Assembly: GCA_037146715.1 (NCBI GenBank)
Contig: JBAWWO010000001.1
Coordinates: 6,433 to 70,432 of the forward strand
Direction: 5' to 3'
From: Alphaproteobacteria bacterium
Lineage (GTDB): Bacteria > Pseudomonadota > Alphaproteobacteria > UBA7879 > UBA5542
Length of the DNA stretch: 64,000 nucleotides
Shown piece by piece: positions 717 to 19,403 of this stretch (positions are counted from its first letter, which is position 1; the number at the start of each line of letters is the position of its first letter). The notes below the pieces were generated by a model. It ran no database searches. It worked only from the letters and a program-made list of their open reading frames with translations, and was not told where the DNA came from. Position numbers and translations under genes: made by a program.

Positions 717-737
717 CCCTCGGGCCGAGCCCGAGGG
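717..737. repeat. GC-rich palindromic element, variant A (CCCTCGGGC-cga-GCCCGAGGG)
   Basis: Perfect 9-bp inverted arms with a 3-nt loop. A near-identical copy lies at 11106..11132. Confidence 0.6.
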
Positions 738-772
738 ATTCATTGGGAGGGAGCGTCCCTCTTTTATTGCCG

Positions 773-793
773 TCCTCGGGCTTGACCCGAGGA
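773..793. repeat. GC-rich palindromic element, variant B (TCCTCGGGCTTGACCCGAGGA)
   Basis: 21-nt palindrome that is identical at 19307..19327. Confidence 0.6.
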
Positions 794-829
794 TCTATTC
801 AGGAAGTCAAAAAAAAATTTCATTTTCTC

Positions 830-859
830 TTGACTTTTCCTGATGGGATTATCATAAAA
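830..859 (+). promoter_or_regulatory. putative sigma70-like promoter for rplU-rpmA
   Basis: TTGACT (830..835) followed by TATCAT/CATAAA about 14-18 nt downstream, about 30 nt upstream of the rplU RBS. Confidence 0.3.
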
Positions 860-886
860 GGTCATTAGTTATTAGTTAGGAATATT

Positions 887-1345
887 ATGTTTGCAATTAT
901 TAGAACCGGTGGAAAACAATATAAGGTCAAAAGTGGTGACCTGGTTTTCGTTGAAAAATTAGAGCACGCAACGGGCGATCACGTTGTGTTTGAAGACATC
1001 TTGATGATTGGAGATGAGACTAAAACAACAGTTGGTTCTCCAACTTTGGCTGGCGCGAAGGTGGGTGGCGTTGTTGTCAACCAGGACCGCGCAGATAAAG
1101 TTATCATCTTCAAAAAGACTCGCCGTCATACATACAAGCGGAAGAAGGGTCATCGCCAACACAGAACAATCGTTCGTATCATGGAAATTTCTTTGAGCGG
1201 CGTGTTGCATGGTGCAAAGCCTGCTGCGAATGAAAAAGTTTCAACAGCTAAGCCTGTGGCTGCAGCTGAACCCAAACAGAAGGCGGCCCCTAAGGCAGCC
1301 CCTAAGAAAGCTTCTGCTGCTAAAGCACAGAAGGCTTCTGAGTAG
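887..1345 (+). CDS. rplU: 50S ribosomal protein L21 with C-terminal Ala/Lys/Pro-rich extension
   Basis: N-terminus [14 protein letters not shown] is canonical L21. The extended AK-rich tail is typical of alphaproteobacteria. Followed by rpmA. Confidence 0.92.
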
Positions 1346-1359
1346 GAAAGAGGTAAGAA

Positions 1360-1608
1360 ATGGCACAGAAAAAAGCAGGTGGTAGTTCCAGGAACGGTCG
1401 CGATTCAGCTGGTCGTCGTCTTGGTGTAAAAAAATTCGGTGGACAATCTGTTATTCCCGGTAACATTTTGGTTCGTCAACGGGGAACAAAAGTATTCCCT
1501 GGTCCAAACGTAGGCATAGGCAAAGACCATACTTTGTTTGCCCTAACTGAAGGACAAGTGCGCTTTTCCAAAAAAGGTGAAGGCAGAATGTTTGTAACCG
1601 TTATTTAG
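1360..1608 (+). CDS. rpmA: 50S ribosomal protein L27
   Basis: [29 protein letters not shown] is canonical L27. 82 aa. Confidence 0.95.
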
Positions 1609-1615
1609 TTTCCCG

Positions 1616-1700
1616 GAGGAGAGGGAGCCCCCCTCTCTCCAATCATCCCGAGGGGCCGTAAGGCCGACGTGGGGGGCCAGCTTTCTTTTCTCTATATTGT
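1616..1700 (+). terminator. stem-loop cluster downstream of rpmA (probable intrinsic terminator)
   Basis: GGAGAGGGAG-CCCC-CCTCTCTCC hairpin, then a GGCCGTAAGGCC palindrome and G-rich stem followed by TTTCTTTTCTC. Contains a half-copy (TCCCGAGGGG) of the dispersed palindromic element. Confidence 0.45.
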
Positions 1701-1742
1701 CACAAAACATAACTATTCCATATCTGACTGCAGAATAGTTTT

Positions 1743-17330: not shown

Positions 17331-17488
17331 TTTTAGTCTCCTATTCACATACAATACGAATCTTATATAGGAACTAAAATTTTTATTTCAAGAGTATAAT
17401 GAGAAACTTCTACTTTATAGCCAAACTCACTTTAAAATTGAGCCAAGGATCTATAGGACGATTTAGTTTCTTATTCAGATTTCTTTGC

Positions 17489-17701
17489 CTATTTTTTTCC
17501 CCTAAGACTTACAGTGCGCGCAATTTCTTTACTGATTTGCTTAGATAACTTTTCCATTTCTTTTTTAAGATCCTCGGAGGGTTCTTTTGCAGAGTCTATT
17601 TGACGATGTTTTCTTGGAGAGACTGTGTTTTCTTCTTGAGGGGAAGCGTAAGAACTAAAACTTATAAGGGCGATCAGGACTGTTCCTAATTTAAATTTCA
17701 A
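17489..17701 (-). CDS. hypothetical small secreted Lys-rich protein
   Basis: 70 aa with a signal peptide. ATGA start/stop overlap with the upstream HAD phosphatase gene suggests translational coupling. Confidence 0.4.
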   Translation of the reverse strand: MKFKLGTVLIALISFSSYASPQEENTVSPRKHRQIDSAKEPSEDLKKEMEKLSKQISKEIARTVSLRGKK

Positions 17702-18261
17702 TTCTGGTTTTCTCCTAAAATAAAAGCAGCAGCAGCTTTTAGATTAGCATGCACAGCAACAGGAGTGTAGTTCTTAAATTCTTCATGAACAGCTGTTTTG
17801 GTCCCGTGGCCTGTTAAGACCAGGTGGGCGGCGCATCCTGCGGCGCGGGCGGCTTTTAGATCGCGAATATCATCGCCAATCATCAGGGTTTCTGAGGGAG
17901 TGACGTCCAGGTCTGACATGGCCTCAAGCAGCATGCCCGCATTGGGTTTTCGGCGATGGGTCGGAAAATCAGGGTGGTCAGGACACACATATATTTTATG
18001 CAGATTAATGTGATGCTGTTTCAAATTTTTTATCAAATGTTGATGAATTTCTTCCAGCTGATCCATCGTAATCAGGTTGCGGCCAATGCACCCCTGGTTT
18101 GTGATAATAGCGAGCTTGATCCCCGCGTCCGACAGCTGTTTTATGGCTTGGATGCTGTCAGGGATGAAGTTAAATTCTTCCACAGATTTTACATATCCAG
18201 TGCGTTCTTCGTTAATCACGCCATCTCGGTCGAGTAGGATCAGTTTGGGAAGTGTCATCAA
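17698..18261 (-). CDS. gmhB: HAD-IIIA phosphatase, D,D-heptose 1,7-bisphosphate phosphatase-like
   Basis: LILLDRDGVIN, ITNQ.G, CPDHP....RKPNAGM, GDD..D..AA.AAG are the HAD motifs I-IV in the GmhB arrangement. 187 aa. Confidence 0.7.
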   Translation of the reverse strand: MMTLPKLILLDRDGVINEERTGYVKSVEEFNFIPDSIQAIKQLSDAGIKLAIITNQGCIGRNLITMDQLEEIHQHLIKNLKQHHINLHKIYVCPDHPDFPTHRRKPNAGMLLEAMSDLDVTPSETLMIGDDIRDLKAARAAGCAAHLVLTGHGTKTAVHEEFKNYTPVAVHANLKAAAAFILGENQN

Positions 18262-18268
18262 CAGCTCA

Positions 18269-19135
18269 CTATTTTATGGAGGTCAAGCTGTTGAAGGGAA
18301 GAAGTTCTGGCTTAGATGCGCGATATTTTTCGTATCTATCCACAAATTTCTCAAAGGCCTCTTTGTTCATTATATTTAGGCCATCTTTACGATCCCAGTT
18401 ACCCCATTGTACTGACCCTTTGTTGAAGTCATCAGTCCAAAAGAATTTAATCGTATCCGCGTATTTAAAATATACAGGCATTCTTTCATAAAAAGCCTTT
18501 GCTTTTTCCACGGCGTCTTCTGGGGTTGATTGGTAGAATGTTTTTTCCCTATTCGCTATATAGGCAATGCGATTTTCATCTGTAGTATCGCACAATAATA
18601 GCTCAATTCTATAGCTCTCAGTCTTAAGTTTCTCGTATAACTTCCCTATATGAGGGGATGTGGATGTTGTGCCATGGGCAATGTTGAGCTTGTGTTCAAA
18701 GGCCACATTTAAAATATTATTTGCAATGTAATTTGATCCTCCCCGCCATTTTTCATAAGCAACTTTTAAATATTCGGGGCTTTGGCTTTGGGCATGGGGA
18801 CCCGTTGCGGGAATATACGTATTGACCATATAGCGAAGACCATAGGCGTCAGGATCTGCGCGCACATAGTTATCATCGGATAGATAATTCTCAAGAATCG
18901 TTGATTTCATGGATCCCGGTCCCCCAGCAGTTGCTAGGTAAATAGGTTTGGGAGAGGCCTTTTTTCCCTCTAAGAAAATGCTAGAAATAATATGCTGATC
19001 TGCTTGAATCGCAGTCAATTCTTCGGGTGAATATTTAGCAATCCAACCGTCAGTGACCTCACTGGGGATTAGAGTGGCTGCTTGAGCGTTAAAGACACCT
19101 ATGGATAAAAGAAAAATTTTGAAAAACGATTTCAT
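18269..19135 (-). CDS. secreted zeta-toxin-like/AAA_33-like P-loop kinase-fold protein with degenerate Walker A
   Basis: Signal peptide MKSFFKIFLLSIGVFNAQA. PIYLATAGGPGSMKST resembles the zeta-toxin P-loop (GQPGAGKST), but the Gly preceding the Lys is replaced by Met. D-P-D..R and N.IA..IL motifs follow, as in the zeta/UNAG-kinase fold. A 7-nt gap to the gmhB-like gene suggests an operon. Confidence 0.45.
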   Translation of the reverse strand: MKSFFKIFLLSIGVFNAQAATLIPSEVTDGWIAKYSPEELTAIQADQHIISSIFLEGKKASPKPIYLATAGGPGSMKSTILENYLSDDNYVRADPDAYGLRYMVNTYIPATGPHAQSQSPEYLKVAYEKWRGGSNYIANNILNVAFEHKLNIAHGTTSTSPHIGKLYEKLKTESYRIELLLCDTTDENRIAYIANREKTFYQSTPEDAVEKAKAFYERMPVYFKYADTIKFFWTDDFNKGSVQWGNWDRKDGLNIMNKEAFEKFVDRYEKYRASKPELLPFNSLTSIK

Positions 19136-19280
19136 TTTAAGATTCCTTATAGAAAGTTATGACACAGAATGTACACAACGCTCCTGGATTGTTCAACCGT
19201 TTTAAAGTTAGTTTGTGTATTGTGTTGCGTTGTGTATAAAAACGAATACCCCCCTTTTGCCTTCCTCATCCCCCCTTGAA

Positions 19281-19293
19281 TTCCTCGGGCCCC
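19281..19293. repeat. half-copy of the palindromic element (TTCCTCGGGCCCC)
   Basis: Left arm only, followed by a T9 run. Confidence 0.4.
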
Positions 19294-19306
19294 TTTTTTT
19301 TTGCTT

Positions 19307-19327
19307 TCCTCGGGCTTGACCCGAGGA
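19307..19327. repeat. palindromic element variant B, identical to 773..793
   Basis: TCCTCGGGCTTGACCCGAGGA. Confidence 0.65.
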
Positions 19328-19381
19328 CCCACGCCTTACTTCTTTCGACATCCCAACCGGGGTGTGTTCCGCACCCTTAGA

Positions 19382-19403
19382 CCCTCGGGTAGAAGCCCGA
19401 GGG
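19382..19403. repeat. palindromic element variant C (CCCTCGGG-tagaa-GCCCGAGGG)
   Basis: 8-9 bp arms, same arm sequence as variant A. Confidence 0.6.

Follow-up and report, generated by a model that had tools for sequence, protein, structure and literature searches.

Palindromes with the core of CGTC-3 repetitive extragenic palindromes, most likely head-less derivatives of that superfamily, in an uncultured alphaproteobacterium

The window analysed here (64,000 nucleotides of contig JBAWWO010000001.1, assembly GCA_037146715.1, positions 6,433 to 70,432) comes from an uncultured alphaproteobacterium of 43% GC whose hppA is closest to those of metagenome-assembled genomes (MAGs) and of Paracaedibacter and Caedimonas. 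Direct reading and pattern search revealed in it five perfect palindromes of the form CCTCGGG-N5/6-CCCGAGG, all intergenic, flanked by ahpC, rplU, rpmA, hppA and the genes of an HvfC-like protein, an M23 peptidase and a zeta-toxin-like kinase. They are the five full copies that an earlier note on this DNA had reported. The pattern CCTCGGG-N2-8-CCCGAGG, matched five times in the window, is expected 0.00 times from 100 dinucleotide-preserving shuffles, so a chance origin is rejected and both the existence and the non-randomness of the elements are established; the heptamer CCTCGGG alone occurs 13 times against 4.05 expected. Tolerating up to 3 mismatches added no degenerate copy elsewhere in the window, and the whole set is confined to its first 20 kb. 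The palindromes are GC-rich as had been noted, although the background with which they were contrasted is merely moderately AT-rich.

Strand was assigned from the loop sequence (CTTGA, CTTGG, CTCGG or CTTCTA), which places copies 2 and 4 on the plus strand and copies 1, 3 and 5 on the minus strand, the head side being 5' and the tail side 3' of each palindrome. A hairpin scan gave unbroken stems of 9, 8, 13, 8 and 8 bp for copies 1 to 5, and 80 of 80 stem positions are intact. The copies, and the doublets that four of them form, are the following.

717-737 (core 718-736), minus strand: copy 1 (variant A), CCCTCGGG-CTCGG-CCCGAGGG on the minus strand, 9-bp stem.
773-793 (core 774-792), plus strand: copy 2 (variant B), TCCTCGGG-CTTGA-CCCGAGGA, tail TCTA (ATCTA with the base-pair A).
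11105-11133 (core 11110-11128), minus strand: copy 3 (variant A'), a singlet, TGAACCCTCGGGC-CAA-GCCCGAGGGTTCA, 13-bp stem, minus-strand loop CTTGG.
19307-19327 (core 19308-19326), plus strand: copy 4 (variant B), the same 21 nt as copy 2.
19382-19403 (core 19383-19402), minus strand: copy 5 (variant C), CCCTCGGG-TAGAAG-CCCGAGGG, atypical 6-nt loop.
19281-19293, plus strand: solo left arm, TTCCTCGGGCCCC followed by T9, equal to the left arm and two flank bases of copy 4.
717-793: doublet 1, copies 1 and 2 inverted with head sides inward, 35-nt spacer with a small hairpin at 745-763.
19307-19403: doublet 2, copies 4 and 5 inverted with tail sides inward, 54-nt spacer.

The identity of the two variant-B copies (TCCTCGGGCTTGACCCGAGGA) over all 21 nt, claimed before, was borne out, and copy 3 is also present in L001, a contig assembled independently from the same organism. 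Two further half-sites had been proposed. The one at 19281-19293 is plausible as a solo left arm and is probably a truncated copy; the other, at 1644-1653, belongs instead to a second repeat described below. Outside the palindromes, the head-side flank of copy 5 (AATCAGTAGGAGTAAGC) resembles that of copy 1 (ATTCATTGGGAGGGAGC), the two having in common about 22 nt, GGGAWTCAKTRGGAGKRAGC (738-759 and 19404-19425), that hold a GANTC (CcrM-type) site. Given this common flank, the palindromes may be parts of slightly longer units.

Doublet 1 is enclosed by the stop of ahpC (702) and the start of rplU (887), copy 1 beginning 14 nt past the former, and folds as one long hairpin (-53.1 kcal/mol, z -4.99), a value equalled by 0 of 200 shuffles. 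Copy 3 begins 8 nt past the hppA stop (11096), with a convergent HvfC-like gene that ends at 11230, and folds with -26.4 kcal/mol (z -6.8). Doublet 2 occupies the 351-nt gap (19136-19486) separating two minus-strand genes, downstream of the M23-peptidase gene on its transcribed side, and forms a long composite hairpin (-47.7 kcal/mol, z -2.3). One of the three sites is thus between convergent genes and two are between unidirectional genes. All five copies fall in gaps between long open reading frames (ORFs), in agreement with the earlier note; gaps of at least 60 nt make up about 6% of the window, and the chance that three independent loci would all fall in such gaps is about 2.5e-4. The ORF at 19301-19741 is spurious and should be ignored in annotation.

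The variant-B 19-mer core, CCTCGGGCTTGACCCGAGG, was searched exactly against one genome per GTDB species and was found at no fewer than 120 loci, the hosts among those listed being almost all Alphaproteobacteria, mostly Rhizobiales, Brevundimonas and Devosia. The genera listed are Rhizobium, Agrobacterium, Shinella, Devosia, Mesorhizobium, Martelella, Phyllobacterium, Nitrobacter, Brevundimonas, Roseovarius and Inquilinus, to which are added Acetobacteraceae and Kiloniellales MAGs and a few MAGs of Patescibacteria, Gammaproteobacteria, Terriglobia, Myxococcota and Marinimicrobia. From the listed loci 158 copies of the 19-mer were used for statistics on the flanks, which lie outside the query; no fewer than 158 copies from other genomes thus share the exact 19-mer of copy 2. 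On the 5' side CGTC stands at positions -6 to -3 in 68% of these reference copies and [CT]GTC in 78%; on the 3' side CCA stands at +3 to +5 in 51%. Pairing continues beyond the core at +-1 in 97% (A/T or G/C) and at +-2 in 66%, and ends there (4% at +-3), giving the consensus CGTCAT-CCTCGGGCTTGACCCGAGG-ATCCA. Reference copies are often found as (+)(-) doublets 40-110 nt apart, and the (+)(-) layout of doublet 2 is the arrangement seen in Rhizobiales doublets and at many of the 19-mer reference loci.

These flanks match the published definition of the CGTC-3 REPs (repetitive extragenic palindromes), which comprises an unpaired CGTC head, a 9-bp stem starting with AT, a 5-nt loop and a CCA tail (Di Nocera, De Gregorio, Rocco 2013, BMC Genomics 14:522; PMC3733652), and this match names the family. 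Judged by its sequence, the variant-B core is the core of the CGTC-3 REPs, so that the idea of an arm belonging to no nameable family is not supported, whereas the REP/RPE-type reading offered in the earlier note gains support. CGTC-3 REPs occur chiefly as dimers and chiefly in Alphaproteobacteria, with A. tumefaciens, S. meliloti and R. palustris among their hosts, and their intragenic units encode the peptides VIAGLDPAI and RVKPxHD (PMC3733652); the frame of the window that matches these peptides reads VILGLDPRI. No transposase dedicated to the CGTC REPs had been found as of 2013 (PMC3733652). The same classification makes Neisseria dRS3 and Rickettsia RPE-6 members of CGTC-1 and Rickettsia RPE-4 a member of CGTC-4 (PMC3733652), and it is through that paper that the window repeats are likened to them. 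RPEs, as the window repeats probably do, reside in obligate intracellular Alphaproteobacteria; they and dRS3 differ from the window repeats in stem sequence, RPEs being moreover often intragenic and dRS3 clustered.

The resemblance of the window copies to CGTC-3 REPs extends over the 19 nt of CCTCGGG-CTTGA-CCCGAGG, or 21 nt with the T/A pair, and includes the 5-nt loop, CCA-type tails in copies 4 and 1, and an organization in inverted dimers with 35-54 nt spacers, intergenic and near the 3' ends of ORFs. The 7-bp core is unbroken in all five copies; the pair at +-1 is T/A in copies 2 and 4 and C/G in copies 1, 3 and 5, as it also is in about 25% of the reference copies, and a +-2 pair is present in copy 3 alone. 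The loop CTTGA of copies 2 and 4 is of the CGTC-3 5-nt type, and the loops CTTGG (copy 3) and CTCGG (copy 1) are both found elsewhere with [CT]GTCA heads. At the tail, copy 4 carries ACCCA, the second commonest tail of the family, within a flank (ACCCACGCC) that fits the family tail ACCCAYGC; copy 1 carries G-CCA, and its tail side GCCATGG recurs in CGTC-tagged copies; the ATCTA of copy 2 has one mismatch to the CCA type and recurs in 3 of the reference copies, whereas the tails of copies 3 and 5 do not fit CCA. The identity of the core, and of part of the tails, to the known family is established, and the placement, as two doublets and a singlet with starts 8 and 14 nt past stop codons, also agrees with that of CGTC-3 REPs. 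The window copies differ from these in lacking the unpaired CGTC/TGTC head, in a stem-base AT step that is absent or replaced by C/G, in the 6-nt loop of one copy and the 13-bp stem of another, and in their host, a probably intracellular bacterium of 43% GC instead of a GC-rich free-living rhizobium.

The metagenome contigs with variant A cores, CCCTCGGGCT[TC]GGCCCGAGGG, number 110 and range from 53 to 75% GC; about one third of them have a [CT]GTCA head together with a TCCA or GCCA tail; these heads and tails confirm the orientation given to the window copies. In some metagenomic loci (L245, L246, L249, L264, L292 and about 15 more, from many soil metagenomes) the variant A core sits in a fixed context, TTTGTCAAAGCTTG-core-AGCACGCCCCGAAA, which looks like an orthologous locus rather than a dispersed repeat. 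In viral contigs the bare pattern CCTCGGG-N5-6-CCCGAGG has so many matches that the stem by itself is unspecific, and these matches were left out of the evidence. A full-text literature search with the repeat sequence strings gave nothing relevant, and one on RIME or "intergenic mosaic elements" surfaced only small RNA (sRNA) papers.

Strong GC-rich hairpins that start 8-14 nt past the hppA and ahpC stops would also suit ordinary transcription terminators that had arisen independently at each gene end, the more so as hppA has no other terminator-like hairpin while the hppA of a relative (L243) has a canonical one. The terminator-like option, entertained in the earlier note, nevertheless failed: on neither strand is a copy followed by a T-run, hence by a U-tract, the terminator scan lists none of them, and the T-run of variant B is before the hairpin instead of after it. 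Moreover, the 21-mer stands at unrelated loci, the 19-mer stands at 120 or more loci in many other genomes with conserved flanks that are not those of terminators, and the doublet architecture does not fit. This explanation is very improbable. A search of the window against Rfam gave just two tRNAs at the gathering threshold, and relaxing it to E<=1 added one meaningless microRNA match over doublet 2.

Still less credible, and in our opinion extremely improbable, is that the palindromes are operator sites of a dimeric DNA-binding regulator recognizing CCTCGGG-N5-CCCGAGG. The half-sites are perfectly symmetrical, and copy 2 precedes rplU by 93 nt, as copy 4 does the next gene by 171 nt; however, three of the five copies immediately follow stop codons or separate convergent genes, the arms are N5 apart in some copies and N6 in another, the adjoining genes are functionally unrelated, and unrelated genomes contain this sequence as a repeat.

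Short GC-rich extragenic palindromes that form inverted doublets and long hairpins after genes are also typical of the GTAG REPs and REPINs of E. coli and Pseudomonas. The window copies resemble them in all these features but lack the GTAG tag, no conserved GTAG being present at the palindrome end in the five aligned copies, and their core is that of the CGTC superfamily. We know of no association of this superfamily with RAYT transposases.

A second line of comparison leads to the hairpins called NTS, NTSvar (CGTCATACTCGGGNNNNNCCCGAGTATC) and Ssn-related motifs (SRMs), which stand on either side of genes for small GIY-YIG nucleases with a single domain (cd10448) (Chenal et al. 2025, Nat Commun 16:2388; PMC11893778). 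SsnA binds and cuts SRM hairpins solely as single-stranded DNA and on one strand; cleavage is governed by three bases upstream of the palindrome and binding is governed most by the cytosine right after it (PMC11893778). The window hairpins are of the same type (family consensus here, CGTCATCCTCGGGCTTGACCCGAGGATC), and copies 2, 3 and 4 have the cytosine after the palindrome that SsnA binding needs. Unlike in SRMs, the three upstream bases on which cleavage depends vary among the window copies. In the 120 reference loci listed, no GIY-YIG gene was found beside the 19-mer, so the link with Ssn comes from the literature alone.

Taken together, these comparisons make it probable that the window elements are REP-type palindromes sharing descent with the CGTC-3/NTS/SRM superfamily, and most likely non-mobile, head-less derivatives of it. 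Because the CGTC head is missing, they are classed with head-less derivatives rather than with true SRMs; since nuclease cleavage needs that head, they are most likely non-mobile. Several observations weigh against this reading. An unpaired 5' CGTC, TGTC or CCTC head is found in 0 of 5 copies, whose head sides are AATGAAT, TTGCCGT, GTTTGAA, TTGCTTT and ACTGATT in order; CGTC is likewise absent from the flanks of copies 1 and 4 (GCTTT). The sole CGTC, that of copy 2, is fused into the stem, where CCGT abuts it without the AT step that canonical CGTCAT has, and this stretch also resembles the copy 4 flank TTGCTTT. The published SRM pattern, HGTCWYN(0-2)YYVSBRHN(0-5)WNVSBRGN(0-2)RNCYNB, fits 84 of the 158 reference copies but none of the five in the window; its lone match in the window (21426-21453) is inside a gene and at chance level (0.12 expected). 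No GIY-YIG gene was detected in the window by a six-frame motif scan or by Pfam on the small unassigned ORFs, and no such palindrome occurs in 65 kb (four contigs) of the nearest available relatives, which have 80-84% hppA identity. The number of copies in the window is small, five within 20 kb. Finally, five of five perfect stems beside unrecognisable heads are not expected from simple neutral decay, and stems left intact with heads gone point either to selection on pairing or to a head-less subfamily. The missing head, which is an established observation, is not due to low GC, because copies of the 19-mer in genomes with 38-52% GC still have a TGTCAT head.

An alternative is an active family. 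According to it, the palindromes would form a lineage-specific REPIN- or MITE-like family (MITE, miniature inverted-repeat transposable element) with a flank of its own, TGAWT or TTGCYKT, replacing CGTCAT, mobilised by a co-evolved Ssn-type or other hairpin-specific enzyme encoded elsewhere. The perfection of all the stems, the 21-nt identity of two copies, the 22-nt flank common to copies 1 and 5, the T-rich TTGCYKT flank common to copies 2 and 4, the absence of the repeats from 65 kb of the nearest relatives and the diverged specificities of Ssn homologues (PMC11893778) are in its favour. However, neither a GIY-YIG gene nor another candidate was found in the 64 kb, the flanks are weakly conserved over the five copies, and a 19-mer that is identical class-wide means that identity between copies is no sign of recent copying. 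We therefore regard an active family as unlikely. A further proposal, which appears quite unlikely to us, starts from the five perfect stems beside unrecognisable heads in a 43% GC genome: in this Paracaedibacter-like intracellular lineage the CGTC-3 hairpin would have been uncoupled from the nuclease-recognition head, kept by selection on its pairing and co-opted to give structure to gene ends in RNA or DNA, while the CGTC mini-hairpins at 51355-51395 and their relatives would be the motif of a diverged Ssn.

Returning to head-less derivatives of CGTC-3 units, the following scheme can be proposed. The canonical unit, CGTC-AT-CCTCGGG-CTTGA-CCCGAGG-AT-CCA, forms a hairpin in single-stranded DNA and is usually arranged in inverted doublets near the 3' ends of genes. 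According to the literature, Ssn GIY-YIG nucleases, whose genes are flanked by these motifs, bind this unit and cut beside the head, and they are the presumed agent of the spread of the repeats and of their effects on recombination. The window copies share with it the doublet layout and the position after stop codons as well as the stem, the type of loop and some of the tail, the CGTC head having been lost or never present; taking into account the published need for the upstream bases, they would not be Ssn-type substrates. Transcription would still give the mRNAs of ahpC, hppA and the M23 peptidase very stable stem-loops at their 3' ends, which, to judge from their position and from the REP literature, could block 3'-exonucleases or read-through.

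The presence of the repeats among relatives is patchy. The nearest relatives (84% and 80% identity in hppA, 52% and 46% in the M23 peptidase) are not syntenic at the three repeat-bearing junctions, and hence offer no orthologous empty site. The one with 80% hppA identity (L243) has, downstream of hppA and past a canonical terminator of that gene, a cluster of CGTC-1-like units and a defective CGTC-3-like unit, TGTCAT-CCTCGGGGGCTTGACCTCGGGG-ATCCAGA, which argue for the reading as CGTC-3 derivatives. These features are at 12190-12300 and 15353-15380 of that contig; in the defective unit the right arm repeats the left arm directly instead of inverting it. In low-GC Patescibacteria and Gammaproteobacteria MAGs (L131, L157, L222, L225, L208) the exact 19-mer carries a TGTCAT head and is often paired with a dRS3-like hairpin, GGATTCCCGCCTGCGCGGGAATGAC, which points to spread across phyla or to binning contamination.

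A second repeat, also intergenic and about 40 nt long, is present in the window, CTGGAT-N5/6-CGTC-(4-5 bp GC hairpin, 3-4 nt loop)-TCCT-CTGGATGACG. Its copies are:

51355-51395, plus strand: second repeat.
62119-62150, plus strand: second repeat.
19429-19468, minus strand: second repeat.
1643-1680, minus strand: second repeat.
48080-48110, 62040-62075 and 51652-51669: weaker copies of the second repeat.

CGTC-tagged mini-hairpins number 9 in the window against 1.8 expected. The supposed half-site at 1644-1653 is the tail of one of them, CGTC-GGCC-TTAC-GGCC-CCTCGGGATGA, where the other copies read TCCTCTGGATGA. The second repeat shares the CGTC tag with the described CGTC REPs but is much smaller.

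Other features of the window concern its host and gene content. A TLC ATP/ADP translocase gene at 3702-5222 (Pfam E 1.7e-145) indicates an energy-parasitic intracellular lifestyle, and because of it the host, Paracaedibacter-like by its hppA, is probably intracellular. The zeta-toxin-like P-loop kinase gene (18269-19135, minus strand) lies downstream of doublet 2, and the relatives have no orthologue at that position. An APH(9)-like aminoglycoside/protein kinase gene (7856-8905) stands between nusB and hppA and is absent there in the otherwise syntenic L242. The HvfC-like gene is part of a trio at 11230-13320 (minus strand) with MbnB/TglH-like and BufA1 (DUF2282) genes, a bufferin-type cluster for a ribosomally synthesised and post-translationally modified peptide. 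At 1743-2493 an AAA_14/DUF4143 ATPase extends over two overlapping ORFs in different frames and is probably a frameshifted pseudogene.

The palindromes are thus essentially an ordinary, known kind of feature, a degenerate member of its family in a poorly sampled intracellular lineage, and in annotation the hairpins should be labelled as REP-type (CGTC/SRM-like) repeats, not as terminators, sRNAs or regulatory sites. They extend the range of the CGTC/SRM superfamily to sparsely sampled intracellular Alphaproteobacteria near Paracaedibacter and Caedimonas, and horizontal spread of the motif would fit the finding of the 19-mer in Patescibacteria, Gammaproteobacteria and further phyla. Natural copies that have kept the stem and have no head bear on whether such repeats persist through the nuclease or through the hairpin itself.

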